Assembly (NCBI GenBank): GCA_031407575.1
Contig: JANOIJ010000203.1
Location: 1-44,863, forward strand
DNA length: 44,863 nt
Reading direction: 5' to 3'
Origin: Gemmatimonadaceae bacterium
GTDB taxonomy: Bacteria > Gemmatimonadota > Gemmatimonadetes > Gemmatimonadales > Gemmatimonadaceae
Shown here: one piece after another, positions 3,304 to 37,913 of the stretch
How positions within the stretch are numbered: position 1 is the stretch's first letter
Layout: every line of letters begins with the position of its first letter
The notes under the pieces: generated by a model
Told to the model about the DNA's origin: nothing
Databases searched by the model: none
The model's input: the letters and a program-made list of their open reading frames with translations, nothing else
Program-made: the position numbers and the translations under genes

Positions 3304-3336
3304 TCGTATTTGATTGGTCTTAGGCTGCGATTCTTC

Positions 3337-3513
3337 GGAACTACGGAACAGCGCGATTCACGATCCGTACGGATGCAACGGAAACAGCCGGGTATCGGTC
3401 AGCCACCCTCACCACTCACGGCCACGAAGACATCAAGAATTCTCTTTGTTCATGAACGCGTCGAGACACGCGCACGGAACGATCCGGCAGTTTCCGTTGC
3501 ATCCGTCAAGATC
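3337..3513. repeat. Family-B structured element, copy 1 (long inverted arms 3362-3391 and 3484-3513; leader GGAACTACGGAA at 3337-3348). It sits within the sdh operon between sdhC and sdhA.
   Basis: GATCCGTACGGATGCAACGGAAACAGCCGG pairs with CCGGCAGTTTCCGTTGCATCCGTCAAGATC. There is about 85% identity to a second copy at 35844-35977. Local GC is lower than in flanking sequence. Confidence 0.7.
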
Positions 3514-3552
3514 TGTCCAATTGCTTTTCACTCGCGCACTGGACAACGGTGA

Positions 3553-4344
3553 TCAGAAAAACCGGAAGTCCGACCAGATTCCCATCGAGCACAGCCGCAC
3601 GTAGATGTCTGAGAACGCCACCCAGAACAGGCTCGCCCACGCCCAGTTCATGTGGCCGCGATTGAGACAGCTCACGCAATCGTACGCCTTCTGGCGCACG
3701 GGACGTCCCGACAGGCGGTCGAGGTACCCGCCAACGAGATGACGCAGCGAATGACAGCCGAGCGTGTAGCCGCTCAGCAGGACGACGTTGATCACGAGAA
3801 TCAGCGACCCGATGCCGATGCCGATGTGCTTCACCCCGCTCGCGTCCGCGAACCAGAAGCCGCGATACGCATCGAGGCCGAGGATCACGAGGAAGGCCAG
3901 CGCCGCATACAGGAAATAGCGGTGCACGTTCTGGAGAATGAGCGGCAGGCTGCGCTCGCCGAGGTAGCTGTTGCGTGGCTCGCCGACGGCACAGCCCGGC
4001 GGATCTGCCCAGAACGCCTTGTAGTATGTGCCCCTATAGTAGTAGCACGTGAAGCGGAAGCCGGCGGGGAACGGAAGGATCAGCAGCGCCGGCGAAATGG
4101 GAGGCACGAACCAGGGCGCCGTGGCGAACCACGCATGCGGCGAGTTGCCGACGATGAGCGGCGAATAGAATGGCGAGAGATAGGGACCGAACTCATAGTG
4201 CGCGTTCTGGAACGCGGCCCAGGTGGCGTAGGCGAGAAACGAGCTGAGCACGACGAACGCGCCGACCTGGGGCACCCACCACGCATCGCGACGCATCGTT
4301 TCGCCGAATTTCCGGCGCGTGAGCTGAACGACCTGTTGAGCCAT
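3553..4344 (-). CDS. sdhC: Succinate dehydrogenase/fumarate reductase cytochrome b subunit (b558-type membrane anchor)
   Basis: 263 aa and very hydrophobic, with about 5 predicted TM helices and conserved His residues. It sits directly upstream of sdhA in the same orientation, as in type-B SdhCAB operons. Confidence 0.7.
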   Translation of the reverse strand: MAQQVVQLTRRKFGETMRRDAWWVPQVGAFVVLSSFLAYATWAAFQNAHYEFGPYLSPFYSPLIVGNSPHAWFATAPWFVPPISPALLILPFPAGFRFTCYYYRGTYYKAFWADPPGCAVGEPRNSYLGERSLPLILQNVHRYFLYAALAFLVILGLDAYRGFWFADASGVKHIGIGIGSLILVINVVLLSGYTLGCHSLRHLVGGYLDRLSGRPVRQKAYDCVSCLNRGHMNWAWASLFWVAFSDIYVRLCSMGIWSDFRFF

Positions 4345-4460
4345 CGAGCGCGCATCTCCATTGGTAGAGTGGCGCTAAGGTACGGGCGGTGAAATGTCGC
4401 GGGAAGAGGTTATGCCGTCCGCAGGGCCGCGTGCGCACGAGGATCACCCCGCCGCCCTCG

Positions 4461-4633
4461 TTGTCGTCCCGAGCCCTTCGACGAAGTTCACCCTGAGCGA
4501 CGCCGAAGGGCTCAGGGTAAACTTCGGCGAGGGACCTGCGGTGTCGCTCCGCGGCAAATGGAACAGCACAAGCAGGTCCCTCGGTCGCGAAGCCTGCCCT
4601 GAGCCAGTCGAAGGGCTCCTGTCGGGACGACAA
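4461..4633. repeat. Structured multi-hairpin element: an outer stem (4461-4482 with 4607-4633) enclosing two inner hairpins, one of which has a CCTGAGC...GCTCAGG core
   Basis: TTGTCGTCCCGAGCCCTTCGAC pairs with GTCGAAGGGCTC(CTGT)CGGGACGACAA. Inner hairpin 1 is GAAGTTcACCCTGAGC...GGCTCAGGGTaAACTTC. Inner hairpin 2 is GAGGGACCTGC...GCAGGTCCCTC, a perfect 11-bp stem. The element lies in the divergent region between the sdhC start (4344) and the kinase start (4680). Confidence 0.7.
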
Positions 4634-15256: not shown

Positions 15257-17278
15257 ATGGCCAATCACCTCGCCGGCGAGACCAGTCCGTACCTGCTCCA
15301 GCACGCGCACAATCCCGTTGATTGGCGGCCGTGGGGCGAGGACGCGCTGGCGCTCTCGCGCACCGAGCGCAAGCCCATCCTCCTCAGCATCGGCTACGCG
15401 GCGTGCCACTGGTGTCACGTCATGGAGCGCGAGTCGTTCGAGAACACCGCGATCGCCGCACTCATGAACGAACACTTCGTCTGCATCAAGGTGGACCGCG
15501 AGGAGCGCCCCGATCTCGACGCGATCTACATGCAGGCCACGCAGGCCATGACGGGACACGGCGGATGGCCGATGACGGTGTTTCTCACGCCCGAGGGCGA
15601 GCCGTTTTACGCTGGTACCTACTTTCCGCCGGACGACCGCCACGGCATGCCCAGCTTTGGCCGAGTGTTGCTCGGCGTGAGCGATGCGTGGCGAAGCCGG
15701 CAGGACACCGTGGTGCGCACCGCGGCGCAGATGCGCGAGCTGTACGCGGCGAGTACCGAGCGCACACGCTCCACCGGCACGCTCGACGAAGCGCTACTGC
15801 TCCGCGCGGTCGATTCGTTGAAGCAGCGGTACGAACCGAAGTTCGGCGGCTTCGACGGCGCGCCGAAGTTTCCGCCGACCATGGCGCTGGACTTCGCGCT
15901 TCGGAGCTGGGCGCGTACGGGCGACGCGGATGCGCTCGCGATGGTGACGCACACCTTCCAGCGTATGGCGCGCGGCGGCATCTACGACCAGGTGGGCGGC
16001 GGGTTCTCGCGCTACAGTGTGGATGCGTACTGGCTCGTACCCCACTTCGAGAAGATGCTGTACGACAACGCGCTCCTTGTGCGGCTCGGCGCGCATCTCT
16101 ACCAGGCCACGCATGACGCTGAGGTGCGACGCGTCACTGAGGAGACGCTCGGCTGGGTGTTCCGGGAGATGACGTCGCCCGAGGGCGGATTCTATTCCTC
16201 GCTCGATGCGGACAGCGAGGGCCATGAGGGCCGCTACTACGTCTGGGACTCCAGCGAGCTCGACGCATTGCTCGGCGAGGACTCGTCGCTGCTGAAGTCG
16301 TACTGGGGCGTGACGCCCGGCGGCAACTTCGAGGGGCGCAACATCCTCTTCGCGCCGGATGATCCGTCGGCGGTTGCGCGCGCGCAGGGCGTGACGGAGC
16401 CCGAGTTGCGGACAGCGATCGAGCGCGCGACGCGCATCCTGTACGACGCGCGTGAGCGCCGCGTGCGTCCTGCGCGAGACGAGAAGATCCTCGCCGGGTG
16501 GAACGGCCTGATGCTGCGCGGCGTGGCCGAGGCGGCGCGTGCGTTCGGCGACGACGATCTTCGTGCGCAGGCGGTGACGAACGGGGAATTTCTCTTTCGC
16601 GCGCTGGTGCGCGACGGACGCGTGCTGCGCTCCTACAAGGATGGCGTCGCGAAGATCGACGGCTTCCTTGAAGACCACGCGGCACTGGGGCTTGGCGCGA
16701 TTGCGCTGTATCAGCTCACCTTCGATCGTGTGTGGATCGATCGCGCGCGCGCGCTCGGCGACCAGATTCTCGGGCGGTTCTGGGACGATGACACGCACGC
16801 GTTCTTCGACACGGCGGCGGATGCGGAACGGCTGGTGACGCGTCCGCGGGACGTCACCGACAACGCGCTGCCGAGTGGAACGTCACTGGCGATCGAGCTG
16901 CTGCTGTCGCTCGGTGACTACTTCGATGTGCGCGAGTACACCGACCGCGCGACGCACATGCTGGAGACAGTAGCCGAGCCGATGGCGCGGTACCCCACGG
17001 CGTTCGGCCACGCGCTCGGCGCGGCGGACATGGCGGTGCGCGGCGCGGTGGAGGTGGCGCTTGTGGGACCGGTGTCGGACGAGCGGTTTCAGGCGTTGCT
17101 GCGCGCGGTGGCGGAACGGTACGTGCCGTCGCTGCTACTGGCCGGCGGTGATGCGCACGGCATCGCGGTGATGAAGGATCGTGCGCGCAACGAGCCGACG
17201 GCGTTCGTCTGCCACGCATACACATGCTCTGCTCCAACGACCGATTCTGCGATCCTCGGCAAACTGTTGTCATCCTGA
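15257..17278 (+). CDS. Thioredoxin-domain protein of the DUF255/YyaL family (thioredoxin fold plus six-hairpin glycosidase-like domain)
   Basis: 673 aa. The N-terminus ([54 protein letters not shown]) is the hallmark of DUF255 and spermatogenesis-associated protein 20-like proteins. Confidence 0.88.
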
Positions 17279-17296
17279 GCGTCGCCGAGGGATCAC
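17267..17296. repeat. Partial family-A unit (TTGTCATCCTGAGCGTCGCCGAGGGATCAC) overlapping the stop codon of the preceding gene
   Basis: The TGA stop of the thioredoxin-domain gene (17276-17278) is the TGA inside the repeat core CATCCTGAGC. Confidence 0.7.
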
Positions 17297-17304
17297 AGAA
17301 CACG

Positions 17305-17443
17305 TTTGGGGTCAGAGTCGGGGTCAGAGTCGGGGTCAGAGTCGGGGTCAGAGTCGGGTTTGGTCAGAGTCGGGGAGGCGCGTAGCGTTTGGCTGCGCAT
17401 GGGATCGGAATCGCCCGCGACTCTGACCCCCGACTCTGACCCC
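17305..17443. repeat. Tandem 12-mer GGGGTCAGAGTC x4 plus one degenerate copy (17308-17371), with two inverted copies GACTCTGACCCC (17419-17443)
   Basis: Direct reading gives four perfect consecutive 12-mers, about 45 nt of unique sequence, then two reverse-complement copies. This could form a long hairpin. Confidence 0.8.
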
Positions 17444-21322: not shown

Positions 21323-21340
21323 TGACGTACGATGGCGCTG

Positions 21341-21396
21341 ATGACATCCTGAGCGCAGCGCTGTCATCCTGAGCCCTTCGGCTCAGGATGACAAGG
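21341..21396. repeat. Family-A repeat: a partial unit plus a perfect hairpin TTGTCATCCTGAGCC-cttc-GGCTCAGGATGACAA
   Basis: It fills the gap between convergent stops (21322 plus strand, 21397 minus strand) and acts as a likely bidirectional terminator. Confidence 0.8.
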
Positions 21397-28139: not shown

Positions 28140-29657
28140 ATGTCTGGTCGCATTCATAGTCCGTGGGGTCGCGCACCATCGCGCGGCATGCTCGCAGTCA
28201 TTGCCACAACCATGTTGCTTGCCTGCGGCGGGGACCTGGGGCCAACCGCCAGCCGGCAGACCCCCACCCAAGTGAATCCGGTCCGCATCGACGTGTCTCC
28301 AACGGCGCTGAGCCTTGCCGTGGGCGGCAATGGACGGCTCTCGGCGCGAGCCGTTGATGCCAGCAGCCGAGAGGTCATCGCGTCATTCGCGTGGTCCGCC
28401 GCCGACCCTGCCGTCGCGACCGTGAACGCGAGCGACGGCACCGTGACGGCGCTGTCCGCCGGAACCACCACGGTGACGGCCACGGCGGGAACACTGAGCG
28501 CGACGGCAATCGTGTTGGTACGGCCGCCGGATCCCCCTGTCGGAATCTCCATCTCGCTGTCTGCGTTGAGCCTCTTCGGCGGCGGTACGGAGCGATTGAC
28601 CGCACACGCGTACGACTCCACCGGGCGGGTGATTGCGGACATGGCCGTCGAGTGGTCGTCCGCCGATCCGCGCATAGCCACCGTCGGCGTCAGCGACGGC
28701 CTTGTCACCGCGATCTCCGTGGGCACAACGACGATCACCGCTGTGGCGGGAGCGTTCTACGCTGTTTCGACAGTATCCGTCATTCCGGCGCCCAGCGCTT
28801 CCTTCGCATTCACGCGCGTGACGTCGCTGAGCGACGGAAGCTTCCGCTCCGACGTGCTCTCGCGCTCCGTTGGCGATCGCACGATGCGGCCGCTCCCGCG
28901 CCCCAACCAGTTCACGTCGATCGCTGCGCCCGCGTGGTCACGCGATGGCGGACAGTTGGTCGTTGAGGTGGTGCACCGGTTCGAGCAGGGATGCCCGTGG
29001 GTGGACTACTCGAGTGACCTGTATGTCGTGAGCGCGGCAGCGCCAGGCAACTCGCCATGGCGCGCGCTGACCACGAATGGCCTGAGCAAGTCGCCGAGTT
29101 GGTCGCCGGATGGCCAGCGAATCGCCTTTGCACAGCAATCGTCGATGTTTTCCAGGACGGCCATCTTCGTCATCGACGCCGCCGGCGGCGTGCCCATTCG
29201 CGTGACGCCGACGGACGGGTGGTACACCAATCCACGCTGGTCGCCCGATGGCTCTCGCCTCGCGTTTTCGGTATGGGAAGGCGAAAACTTCGACAACTCC
29301 GAAGTCTACGTCGTCAACGTCGATGGTAGTGGCTTGACCAACGTCACGCAAAGCCCCGCGTACGACGCGGACCCGGACTGGTCGCCGGATGGCGCGCAAC
29401 TCGTGTTCGTGAGCGATCGTGACCAAACCGCCTACCATTCGAACGTGTTCGTCGTCGATGCCAACGGTCGCAACGTCAGGCGGCTCTCATCGCGCGCCGA
29501 TTACAGCGCCACACCATCGTGGTCGCCCGATGGACGGCACATCCTCTTCAACTCCGGGGGTTCGCTGTTCATGATGAACGCCAATGGTTCATCGATGGTG
29601 CGGCTCACCACGCCTCCGCTCCACTCATGGGACATTGCTCCCGTGTGGACTCGCTGA
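28140..29657 (+). CDS. Lipoprotein with two Ig-like (BIG2) domains and a TolB-like (PD40/WD40-like) beta-propeller
   Basis: The lipobox is MLLACGG. There are two repeats of ...ATV..SDGTVTALSAGTTTVTA.. (Big_2-like). The C-terminus has repeated SWSPDG.R.AF and W/YSPDG blades (PD40). Confidence 0.8.
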   Translation: MSGRIHSPWGRAPSRGMLAVIATTMLLACGGDLGPTASRQTPTQVNPVRIDVSPTALSLAVGGNGRLSARAVDASSREVIASFAWSAADPAVATVNASDGTVTALSAGTTTVTATAGTLSATAIVLVRPPDPPVGISISLSALSLFGGGTERLTAHAYDSTGRVIADMAVEWSSADPRIATVGVSDGLVTAISVGTTTITAVAGAFYAVSTVSVIPAPSASFAFTRVTSLSDGSFRSDVLSRSVGDRTMRPLPRPNQFTSIAAPAWSRDGGQLVVEVVHRFEQGCPWVDYSSDLYVVSAAAPGNSPWRALTTNGLSKSPSWSPDGQRIAFAQQSSMFSRTAIFVIDAAGGVPIRVTPTDGWYTNPRWSPDGSRLAFSVWEGENFDNSEVYVVNVDGSGLTNVTQSPAYDADPDWSPDGAQLVFVSDRDQTAYHSNVFVVDANGRNVRRLSSRADYSATPSWSPDGRHILFNSGGSLFMMNANGSSMVRLTTPPLHSWDIAPVWTR

Positions 29658-35436: not shown

Positions 35437-35829
35437 ATGCGCAAAGCCGTCATCGCACGAGATGCGCCGCGGGACGAGGCCACGTTGTCCGCGGCCCTGC
35501 ACTCGCTCGCGCTTTCACACCTGCCGTCGCAGTTCTACCTCGGCCTCCAACTCGCGCTGCCGGCGGCAGTGCAGTTCTGGGCGTGGGGATGGCATCGCAG
35601 CGCGGGATGCATGGTGGTGGCGAGCGCATTCGGCATCTGGGCACTGGGCGAGCAGGCGCTGGACCAGGCCGGCGACACGACGATGGGCAACGGGCCGCCT
35701 GGGCGACTCGCGCGCGCCGTGCACTGGACGTCGGGGCTTGTCGCTGGCGGGTTGACGGCGGTGCTGCTGCTCGATCTCGTGCTGCGGTTTCTCGGCGTGG
35801 TGTTCAAGTGCCCGGGATGCGCGGGATAG
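35437..35829 (+). CDS. Hypothetical small membrane protein
   Basis: Start at MRKAVIARD within ORF 35347..35829. It has two hydrophobic segments and a C-terminal CPGC. The start is uncertain. Confidence 0.35.
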   Translation: MRKAVIARDAPRDEATLSAALHSLALSHLPSQFYLGLQLALPAAVQFWAWGWHRSAGCMVVASAFGIWALGEQALDQAGDTTMGNGPPGRLARAVHWTSGLVAGGLTAVLLLDLVLRFLGVVFKCPGCAG

Positions 35830-35843
35830 AGTCTCGGGATCAC

Positions 35844-35977
35844 GGCAACTACGGAAGAGCGGGGTTTCACATTTTACGGATTCTACGGAGACTGCCGGAT
35901 ACGGCAGAAGCTCCTTCTGTTCCGTGGTATCCGGCAGTTTCCGAAGCATCCGTAGAATCCGTCAACGCGCTGTTGAC
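35844..35977. repeat. Family-B structured element, copy 2: three nested perfect stems (TACGGATTCTACGGA/TCCGTAGAATCCGTA; CTGCCGGATAC/GTATCCGGCAG; CAGAAG/CTTCTG) plus the palindrome GTCAAC-N5-GTTGAC
   Basis: It is about 85% identical to 3337-3513 in the leader (GGNAACTACGGAAnAGCG) and in the right arm (CCGGCAGTTTCCGnnGCATCCGTnnAATCCGTCAA). It lies between convergent gene ends (35829 and 36042) and is AT-richer than the surrounding sequence. Confidence 0.7.
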
Positions 35978-36041
35978 ACGCGGATGCCCAGTTCGCATGC
36001 GCGCATCGACACGTGGCGTTCGACAACGACAACTACTCCGC

Positions 36042-37913
36042 CTACGGCCGCAACGGTGCCCGCACCGCGCTGCCGGTTCGCTCCGCCGTGTGCACGACCA
36101 GCGACAGGCGGCCCGCCATCAGGTCCGCGCGCTCGGCCGCATTCAGCGTGAGCGTTCCCCGCGCCTGGCTCGATCCTGAAAGTCCGAGTCGCCGAACCAC
36201 CGGGCCCGCATGACCCGCGCTATCGCGACTGAGGCTCATGAGCCTGACACGGCTCGCGACCGGATTCGCCACGCGCACGTCGTAGTCGAGCGCGCGCTTG
36301 GTGACATCGAACGAGAACGTGCCGCGGATCGTGCCGCCGGAGCCGGATGCCACAGCGGTGAAGGCGACGGGCGCCGGTGCCGTGCCACGCACGAGCGGCG
36401 GAGTCGTTGCCGGCGCGCGGCGCGGATGCGACGACTGCTCGTAGTCGTACGCCATGGCGACGAGGCGCGCGTCGGAGAGTGAGCGCCCGAGCAACTCGAC
36501 ACCGATCGGCAAACTGTCCGGTGTGAAGCCCGCGGGAATGGACAGCGCGGGCAGGCCGCTGACTGCGCTGATGCTGCAGGTCGAGCCGCGCTGCGGCTCG
36601 CCGATGAGTGCCGCCTTGCGCGTGAGCGTCGGATAGGCGAGCGCGTCGAGGCGGTTCACGTCCATGAGTGCGACGAGCGTATCGCGCGCGACGACCCGAT
36701 TCGCCAGGGCCGCGCGATACGGCGCGCCGTCTCGCGTGCCGCGCAACTCGCGTCGACGAAACTGCGCCTCGAGCGCCGTGTGGTACAGTCCGCGCTCGAG
36801 GATCTCACCGAGCGAACGAACCGGCGCGTTGGGTATCTGCGCAAGAAAGTCGAGCAGGTCGAACTTGAACTCGAAGTCGATCACGGCTGCCCTCGTCATG
36901 ATCGTGTCCAGCCCCGGCGTGGCGATCTCGATGATCTCGGCGCCGCGCGACTTCATCTGGTCCAGCGCAGCTCGTACGACGCGCGAGCCCTCCTGGTCGT
37001 CGGCCTCCGTGCCGAAGAACGACCTGAGGACACCGATGCGCGTTCCGCGCAACGACGTGGAATCGAGCGACGCGACGAAGCGAGGAAGTGCACGTCCCTC
37101 GAGGACGCGTGTCGCGGAGTCTGCGCCGTCCGGGCCGATGGTTGCGTCGAGCGCTATGGCGAGATCCATCACCGTGCGCGCCATCGGACCACCGACGTCC
37201 TGCGTGTGCGAGAGCGGCACGATACCGGTGATGCTCGACAATCCCTTCGTGGGCCGCAGGCCGAACAGGTTGTGCACGGCGCTCGGGGTGCGGATGGAGC
37301 CGCACGTGTCCGAGCCGAAGGCGACTGCGGCAAAGCTCGCGGCCACTGCTGCGCCGCTTCCGCCGCTGGAGCCACCCGGATACCTGTCCGGGTCGTACGG
37401 GTTGCACGTCTGTCCGCCGAACGAGCTGATGCTGGTGATGCCTGCGGCCAGCTCGTGGAGATTCGACTTGGCGAGAATGATCGCGCCGGCGTCGCGCAGT
37501 CGACGCACCTGGAACGCATCGTCCGGCGTCTGCAGATCCGCCAGTGCGATGGAACCGCCGGATGTCGGCATGTCGCGCGTGGCGTAGTTGTCCTTGAGGA
37601 TGACGGGAATGCCGTGCAGCGGGCCGCGCACGGTGCCCGCCTTGCGCTCGGCGTCGAGCGCCGCGGCGTTCGCGCGAGCCAGCGGGTTGATGCGAATGAT
37701 CGCGTTCAACGACGGCCCGCGATGATCGTACGCCGCGATGCGTGCGAGGTACGCGTCGACCAGCGCGACGGCGGTCGTGCGGCCCGCCGCCATCGCCGCC
37801 TGCAACTCAGGAATGGATGCTTCGTATACGACGTCCGTCCTCGTGCGCTGCGCGAGTGCCGGCGACGCACCGAGAAGGAGGGCTATGATCGCGAGACGCG
37901 AGGCGCCGAGCAT
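36042..37913 (-). CDS. Amidase (amidase-signature family), exported
   Basis: 623 aa with a signal peptide (IIALLLGASPALAQ). The amidase-signature region is GGSSGGSGAAVAASFAAVAFGSDTCGSIRTPSA, and the catalytic Lys/Ser context is LHGIPVILKDN. Confidence 0.88.
   Translation of the reverse strand: MLGASRLAIIALLLGASPALAQRTRTDVVYEASIPELQAAMAAGRTTAVALVDAYLARIAAYDHRGPSLNAIIRINPLARANAAALDAERKAGTVRGPLHGIPVILKDNYATRDMPTSGGSIALADLQTPDDAFQVRRLRDAGAIILAKSNLHELAAGITSISSFGGQTCNPYDPDRYPGGSSGGSGAAVAASFAAVAFGSDTCGSIRTPSAVHNLFGLRPTKGLSSITGIVPLSHTQDVGGPMARTVMDLAIALDATIGPDGADSATRVLEGRALPRFVASLDSTSLRGTRIGVLRSFFGTEADDQEGSRVVRAALDQMKSRGAEIIEIATPGLDTIMTRAAVIDFEFKFDLLDFLAQIPNAPVRSLGEILERGLYHTALEAQFRRRELRGTRDGAPYRAALANRVVARDTLVALMDVNRLDALAYPTLTRKAALIGEPQRGSTCSISAVSGLPALSIPAGFTPDSLPIGVELLGRSLSDARLVAMAYDYEQSSHPRRAPATTPPLVRGTAPAPVAFTAVASGSGGTIRGTFSFDVTKRALDYDVRVANPVASRVRLMSLSRDSAGHAGPVVRRLGLSGSSQARGTLTLNAAERADLMAGRLSLVVHTAERTGSAVRAPLRP

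Follow-up and report, generated by a model that had tools for sequence, protein, structure and literature searches.

Introduction

Among described mobile repeats, the closest in kind to the element reported here are MITEs, which are defined as elements of about 100-400 bp with terminal inverted repeats whose transposase is supplied in trans, and REPINs, in which an inverted doublet of REP sequences and a spacer form a hairpin in single-stranded DNA or mRNA, and which are extragenic and show no obvious target duplication (PMC3116915). When we searched the literature on MITEs, REPs or RAYTs in Gemmatimonadetes, we found nothing relevant. Here, we analyze a contig of 44,863 nt from a Gemmatimonadaceae bacterium (the whole stretch is referred to as the window) and describe a palindromic element, copy 2, that lies between two convergent genes and has a relative, copy 1, elsewhere in the window. 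We propose, with a probability of roughly 0.7, that copy 2 belongs to a family of small, non-coding, non-autonomous mobile repeats that is specific to Gemmatimonadota and of the MITE, REPIN or ERIC type.

Results

A long hairpin between two convergent genes

Copy 2 lies in a gap of 212 nt between the stop codons of two convergent genes. The gene on its left (35437-35829, + strand, placed by the gene call on a contig of the same strain, L044) encodes 130 aa, ends just short of the element and matched no family in a Pfam search; its C-terminus, ...CPGCAG*, is kept in two relatives, L046 and L049. The gene on its right (36042-37913, - strand) encodes an amidase/CHRD protein (Pfam PF01425 and PF07452), the C-terminus of which, VRAPLRP*, aligns with VRAPLRR* of L046. 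Homologues of this amidase bear Gemmatimonadaceae names. The element between them spans 35844-35982, as defined by homology to copy 1 and by half-element matches in nhmmer at 35845-35901 (+) and 35977-35928 (-), and a preliminary description of this DNA had delimited it correctly. Its GC content is 0.55, compared with 0.67 for the window and genome. A contig in assembly GCA_043737975.1 is 99.88% identical to the window, and none of the nine SNPs that separate the two falls within the element. A public Logan contig assembled from short reads (L045), which matches the window at 100% identity, ends at 35932, inside the hairpin described next, and this end is likely an assembly break caused by the palindrome.

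Positions 35876-35962 can form a long, imperfect hairpin, and the claim of the preliminary description that such a structure occupies this convergent junction is upheld by a comparison with shuffled sequence, against which the fold is far more stable than chance. As RNA, the + strand folds at -73.5 kcal/mol, compared with -50.5 +/- 4.0 kcal/mol for its shuffles (z -5.7; 0 of 200 shuffles as good), and the - strand at -67.9 kcal/mol (z -5.0 against shuffles); as single-stranded DNA the element folds at -38.8 kcal/mol (z -6.7). Three nested perfect stems are present as described, with lengths of 14, 12 and 6 bp in place of the 15, 11 and 6 bp originally given: the outer stem pairs 35876-35889 with 35949-35962, what would be its fifteenth pair being a T/C mismatch; the middle stem pairs 35891-35902 with 35927-35938; and the inner stem pairs 35905-35910 with 35914-35919 around a loop that reads CTC (35911-35913) and not CTCC. 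Between the outer and middle stems, 9-10 nt (at about 35939-35948) bulge out on one side, and the paired region comes to 87 nt, short of the roughly 110 nt of nearly continuous pairing first reported. TCCG occurs in copy 2 at 35921, 35930, 35940, 35949 and 35958, and CGGA and TCCG motifs together number nine in 139 nt, where the density of the window predicts 1.7. Because the arms are periodic in CGGA units of 9-10 nt, copy 2 has alternative pairing registers, and its RNA fold (+ strand) and DNA fold differ in their pairing.

In its sequence the element is nearly symmetric: a central segment is flanked by two inverted arms, each of about 45-50 nt. The left outer arm (35844-35875) consists of the leader GGCAACTACGGAAGAGCGGGGTTTCAC followed by ATTTT, and can be aligned with the outer arms of copy 1 (AACTACGGAACAGCGCGATTCAC) and of a copy in another Gemmatimonadota assembly, L023 (CACGGCAACCGCGAGGAGCGGGAACC). 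The left core arm that follows, ACGGATTCTACGGAGACTGCCGGATAC (35876-35902, + strand), fits an arm pattern, ACGGATNCNNCGGARACNGCCGG, that has four matches in the window, namely two inverted arms in each of two elements, compared with 0.08 expected. The apical part (35903-35926), made up of the 6-bp stem and the CTC loop, is variable, its sequence being unrelated between family members. Beyond it lie the right core arm (35927-35953, - strand; reverse complement ACGGATGCTTCGGAAACTGCCGGATAC), which includes the bulge, and the right outer arm (35954-35982), which is recognised by its homology to copy 1 and contains the perfect dyad GTCAACgcgctGTTGAC (35961-35977).

A further 59 nt (35983-36041) separate the element from the stop codon of the amidase gene, and these are also missing from the empty sites in L046 and L049 described below. 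They hold TCGACACGTGGCGTTCGAC, an outer-arm-like motif able to pair with the dyad (z -2.0), as well as CGACAACGACAAC, a 13-mer that recurs unchanged in the outer arm of a metagenomic family member (L039), and the palindrome ATGCGCGCAT. This stretch is probably a decayed half-element.

Copy 1 and a family of related palindromes

Copy 1 (at about 3339-3536) was found only by short-word blastn. Its core arms, at 3369-3393 (+) and 3482-3506 (-), enclose a centre of 88 nt that is unrelated to the 24-nt centre of copy 2. The left halves of the two copies (35847-35901 in copy 2, 3339-3394 in copy 1) are 73% identical and the right halves (35929-35982 and 3482-3536) 76% identical, and the reverse-complemented left half of copy 1 matches the right half of copy 2 at 77% identity; for the right outer arm of copy 2 the corresponding values are likewise 76% against the copy 1 right arm and 77% against the reverse complement of the copy 1 left arm (GCATCCGTACGGATCGTGAATCGCGCTGTT). 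The leader of copy 2 had been described as common to both copies, and this holds for part of it: within the left half, AACTACGGAA[G/C]AGCG is shared, but the whole 27-nt leader is not, and a search of the window with up to three mismatches returned no second copy of it. On its transcribed (-) strand, copy 1 folds as RNA at -89.3 kcal/mol (z -4.6).

Across the family, the arms are composed of units of 9-10 nt, each with a CGGA, and include a 25-nt core, ACGGATGCAACGGAAACNGCCGGAT, with the consensus ACGGAT[G/T]CNNCGGA[A/G]ACNGCCGGAT. The outer arm carries a motif of the type GGCAAC..GAGGAGCGG or G.AA.AGCG..TT.AC. The centres, of about 20-190 nt, are unrelated to one another, as are the flanks.

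An 18-base form of the arm pattern matched 30 loci in a genome collection, about as many as chance would give, and nine of these 30 are in Gemmatimonadota MAGs, with four in a single MAG, JAZJZK. An inverted partner arm (at most six mismatches, within about 140 nt) accompanies the match at six of the nine Gemmatimonadota loci (L003, L004, L010, L016, L023 and L025) and at none of the other 21. The partner arms of L008 and L024 are more diverged, and L026 is a diverged form with a long loop. Of the 13 loci that a scan of metagenomes with a 20-base arm pattern produced, only two or three are true hits: L033 and L039 clearly belong to the family, L035 is an odd direct pair of arms, and the remaining matches were rejected as chance matches within genes. 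In total, the family comprises 13 copies, two in the window and about 11 elsewhere, and among the genome-collection hits they occur only in Gemmatimonadota assemblies. The preliminary description had entertained the possibility that the element was unique to its two loci in the window, and these additional copies show that it is not.

All 13 copies are intergenic, three between convergent, four between tandem and three between divergent genes, with three contexts undetermined. Their neighbours are unrelated ordinary or housekeeping genes, encoding a TonB-dependent receptor, an amidohydrolase, an acyl-CoA dehydrogenase, an S9 peptidase, a histidine kinase, FtsZ, an ECF sigma factor, ArsR, an MFS transporter, a rhamnosidase and a PQQ dehydrogenase. 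Searched with a half-element profile in nhmmer, neither the 8-kb loci that surround the other members nor 122 kb of sequence from close relatives yielded a further copy, apart from an additional half-arm in L003. A scan of viral contigs gave one match, which is unpaired, and a blastn search of plasmids gave none.

Two of the related loci show additional repeats. In L033, at about 3810-3945, the loop of the element holds a second, nested palindrome (CGCTCGCAACGAGCCGGGA ... TCCCGGCTCGTTGCGCGCG), which suggests that other repeats insert into hairpin tips. The member in L023 is flanked on both sides (at about 4160-4300 and 4410-4480) by another repeat (CAGCGAATSACTYGAMWSMSCCGAATCG...), and inverted symmetry there reaches at least about 70 nt beyond the element.

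Empty sites in syntenic relatives

The sites of both window copies can be compared with those of relatives, the nearest empty sites being in genomes that are 80-88% identical at the protein level. At the copy 2 site, the same two genes converge in L046 (amidase 82% identical) and L049 (amidase 80% identical), with conserved C-termini (...CPGCAG* and ...VRAPLR[PR]*), and their stop codons are separated by 7 nt and 4 nt, respectively, compared with 212 nt in the window.

Copy 1 lies on the transcribed strand between an sdhC-like gene and sdhA-sdhB, within a spacer (3304-3552, - strand) that runs for 249 nt from the stop codon of the sdhC-like gene to the start codon of sdhA. In three independent relatives (L050, L052 and L054; cytochrome b subunit 87-88% identical) the corresponding spacer is 7-9 nt, a distance that suggests translational coupling, and in the window the operon is otherwise intact. 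The parsimonious reading of these alignments is that both window copies are insertions in the window's lineage. About 40-75 nt of each filled gap lie outside the recognisable element, and an alignment of left flanks with reverse-complemented right flanks revealed no consistent target-site duplication at any copy.

At the amidase 3' junction of a further relative, whose amidase is 78% identical to that in the window, there is another palindromic element, distinct from copy 2 and about 150 nt long (L047 10996-11175, L048 11237-11416). Its ends are GGCATCAACTACGAAAGAGAC and, reverse-complemented, GGCATTAACTGACGAAGAAAC, and it has the motif CAACTACG[G/A]AAGAG in common with copy 2. This palindrome and the one nested in L033 imply that such elements come and go, and turnover of palindromic elements is evidently common in the Gemmatimonadota relatives examined.

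The terminal dyad

Directly after the hairpin, as the preliminary description reported, stands the perfect dyad GTCAAC-gcgct-GTTGAC (35961-35977). It had been read as the binding site of a dimeric transcription factor, and as an operator it would control a neighbouring gene. The 6+5+6 dyad is both perfect and unique in the window, where 0.08 occurrences are expected with up to one mismatch, and a similar dyad, TCAACAgcggTGTTGA, stands beside the arm in L010, which are features that an operator might have. Uniqueness bears on this reading in the opposite direction as well: the earlier proposal had been to look for the dyad elsewhere, and the window contains no second occurrence even when one mismatch is allowed. 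The location of the dyad also speaks against an operator, since it lies between two stop codons, upstream of no gene, and so has nothing to regulate, and it is missing from the empty sites of the relatives.

The dyad is better accounted for by the anatomy of the element. Alignment places it at the extreme end of the right arm, where it corresponds to the left leader in inverted form. The homologous stretch in the right arm of copy 1, GTCCAAttgctTTTCAC, does not form a dyad, and the reverse complement of the copy 1 left arm reads GTGAATCGCGCTGTT there. The terminal GTTGAC of copy 2 is the equivalent of the GTTGCC end of L003 and L023, which is the inverted partner of the left-end GGCAAC. The possibility had been raised that no other copy would have the dyad; copy 1 does lack it, but comparably clean dyads are found in L010 and L025 (CAACGggacagCGTTG), so that three of 24 half-elements have one, and the remainder show at most AA..TT complementarity around AGCG. 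Its homology to the element's ends and its presence in three of 24 half-elements together mark the dyad as a variant of the element's end and not a separate operator. The operator reading is thus largely refuted, and we regard it as very improbable.

Readings based on RNA structure

A hairpin of this stability might instead be maintained for its RNA fold. We compared the 25-nt core of the arms between and within elements, and found that its identity is 0.76 from one element to another and 0.79 (range 0.63-0.89) when an element's own two arms are compared. RNAalifold, run on eight short-loop members, predicts 30 pairs, of which almost every one is invariant; the covariation term is +1.28, and only three pairs show a single compensatory case. 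What is conserved, on these comparisons, is the arm sequence in both orientations. Such a pattern is expected of transposon ends recognised by a protein, or of recently copied DNA, and is not that expected of an RNA selected for its fold alone.

The preliminary description had listed a structured small RNA among its options, and an independently transcribed gene of this kind could be imagined from the strong predicted structure and from arms that are conserved across species. The searches lend this option no support. No Rfam 15 family matched anywhere in the window at the gathering threshold; around the element, E-values up to 10 yielded only chance-level matches (0.65 and above), and the best sub-threshold match, to a plant miRNA hairpin, reached 19.6 bits where the gathering score is 100. 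A scan for tRNA and tmRNA found none, no terminator-like site was predicted on either strand of 35600-36200, and no sigma-70-like promoter was found at copy 2 or within copy 1. The element is moreover nearly symmetric, so that neither strand is favoured, its centre is variable and takes 20-190 nt of unrelated sequence, and its covariation is near zero. A small RNA gene seems to us scarcely credible.

A cis-acting hairpin kept by selection, whether as a stabiliser of mRNA 3' ends, an RNase III site or a bidirectional terminator, would fit the high stability on both strands and the placement of copy 2 where the 3' ends of two convergent genes meet, and among copies between tandem genes the transcribed strand folds at the lower energy in three of four cases, a sample too small for significance. 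This reading must be set against the U-tract terminator that is present on neither strand, against the relatives in which the same genes lie 4-7 nt apart, against the three copies that lie between divergent genes, and against arms that are conserved in sequence with near-zero compensatory variation. The position of copy 1 within the sdhC-sdhA-sdhB operon is also difficult to reconcile with it: termination there would cut off sdhA and sdhB, no promoter or terminator able to rescue sdhA expression was found within the element, and we therefore argue that the hairpin is not a terminator. Overall, a selected cis-acting hairpin appears improbable. Rho-independent terminators and 3' stabilising hairpins do resemble copy 2 in being GC-containing hairpins at the 3' ends of convergent genes, but unlike Rho-independent terminators the element has no U-tract, its stem is several times the length required, and it also occurs inside an operon and between divergent genes.

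Two kinds of recombination site were also considered. An integron attC site has core sites R''/R' of the form RYYYAAC ... GTTRRRY and is found at the 3' end of a mobile cassette, with an integron integrase nearby. The ends of the element, CGGCAAC ... GTTGACA, are off this consensus, the genes on either side are housekeeping genes in conserved synteny, and no integrase is encoded in the window, and we rejected an attC identity. A Xer site was rejected on sequence and context.

Other repeats in the window

The window contains a second and more abundant repeat, which we call family A (GTGCAGATCCTTCGCTGCGCTCAGGATGACAA). Five inverted doublets with the two members 0-49 nt apart lie at 8-43/93-128, 10123-10155/10181-10213, 38532-38565/38576-38609, 40128-40159/40175-40206 and 42837-42871/42872-42907, and single or degenerate copies at 17268-17290 and 21339-21372; most are in gaps between predicted genes. 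Family A is a textbook REPIN-like arrangement, and a better fit to REPINs than the family of copy 1 and copy 2. Next to a degenerate family A copy, just downstream of a gene for a DsbH-like thioredoxin, positions 17308-17355 are a perfect tandem repeat of four GGGGTCAGAGTC units. A longer repeat at 29100-29544, with a period of 138-141 nt, encodes the PD40/'WSPDG' beta-propeller blades of a 505-aa secreted protein (28140-29657, + strand) and is an ordinary protein repeat.

Discussion

We describe a family of palindromic repeats in Gemmatimonadota, and interpret it as a family of non-autonomous mobile elements. The preliminary description had offered a structured small RNA, a cruciform-forming DNA element and a MITE as options, and of these the MITE-like option is what the evidence favours: both window copies are absent from syntenic junctions, and related copies occur at unrelated intergenic sites in Gemmatimonadota. 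With lengths of 107-236 nt and no gene spanning any of them, terminal inverted repeats, dispersal, and presence/absence polymorphism, family members share these properties with MITEs, and their two inverted repeats and spacer, which form a predicted hairpin, also reproduce the architecture of a REPIN.

In our model, an element inserted between the convergent stop codons of the 130-aa gene and the amidase gene to give copy 2, and another inserted into the tight sdhC-sdhA junction to give copy 1. A transposase encoded elsewhere would recognise the CGGA-rich arms and move the element, possibly by way of a hairpin or single-stranded intermediate, and after insertion the element would be a passive passenger. 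Any copy that is transcribed, which copy 1 must be given its place in the sdh operon, would fold into a long hairpin; this hairpin might undergo processing or influence the stability of the mRNA, but would not stop transcription. No transposase or RAYT gene is present in the 45-kb window or beside any copy, and the sequence examined, namely the window and the loci of the copies, yielded no autonomous element that shares the ends of the family.

A more specific version of this explanation is that the arms are REPs moved by a domesticated RAYT, an IS200/IS605-like Y1 enzyme, through a single-stranded hairpin intermediate. The inverted doublet with its spacer fits the REPIN definition (PMC3116915), no target-site duplication was seen, as expected for Y1 transposition, and some outer arms (those of copy 2, L010 and L025) are themselves small dyads, while family A places a second and clearly REPIN-like doublet family in the same window. 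Yet most arms do not appear palindromic on their own, clean dyads being limited to three of 24 half-elements, the observed density of two copies in the 45-kb window is low for REPINs, and a RAYT or Y1 transposase gene was seen neither in the window nor adjoining any copy. We consider this narrower version unlikely.

The arms, each with four or five inverted CGGA units of 9-10 nt, and a hairpin tip that tolerates, and seems to attract, unrelated inserts, raise a further idea, namely that the family represents a mechanistically new class of hairpin-borne mobile element. Such an element might be mobilised by an unrecognised enzyme, neither a classical DDE nor a RAYT transposase, that reads the periodic CGGA array on a folded single strand. 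We view a new class as quite unlikely, and continue to favour a mobile repeat of the MITE, REPIN or ERIC type.

If this interpretation is correct, palindromic mobile repeats are active in Gemmatimonadota, a phylum for which the literature we searched holds no prior description. Both this family and family A should be masked when Gemmatimonadota genomes are annotated, and the element should not be mistaken for small RNA genes, terminators or operators. The family would also account for contig breaks in short-read Gemmatimonadota assemblies. Its presence in the sdhC-sdhA junction, which is normally tightly coupled, provides a natural test of the effects of a long hairpin on the expression of an operon.

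The family most closely recalls the Correia/NEMIS elements of Neisseria and the ERIC/IRU elements of enterobacteria. Like these, it consists of non-coding, intergenic elements of about 110-240 bp with long terminal inverted repeats, in which the whole element is an imperfect palindrome, presence or absence varies between related genomes, and some variants have extra internal sequence; and like these, its members may sit in operons and be co-transcribed as a hairpin. The Gemmatimonadota element differs from both in belonging to a different phylum and having no sequence similarity to them, in that a related autonomous IS was not found for it, and in arms that are arrays of 9-10-nt CGGA units around a fully variable centre with no conserved core. 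Correia elements duplicate TA, whereas the Gemmatimonadota element has no recognisable target-site duplication. With REPINs it shares two inverted conserved repeats, a short spacer and a predicted hairpin in single-stranded DNA or mRNA (PMC3116915), along with an extragenic location and no obvious target duplication; it departs from them in its longer (45-50 nt) arms, most of which show no clean palindrome, its low observed density, and copies that have no RAYT beside them. The element shares no sequence with any described family. This palindromic repeat family is thus new and lineage-specific, while the kind of element that it represents, the selfish palindromic repeat, is well known.
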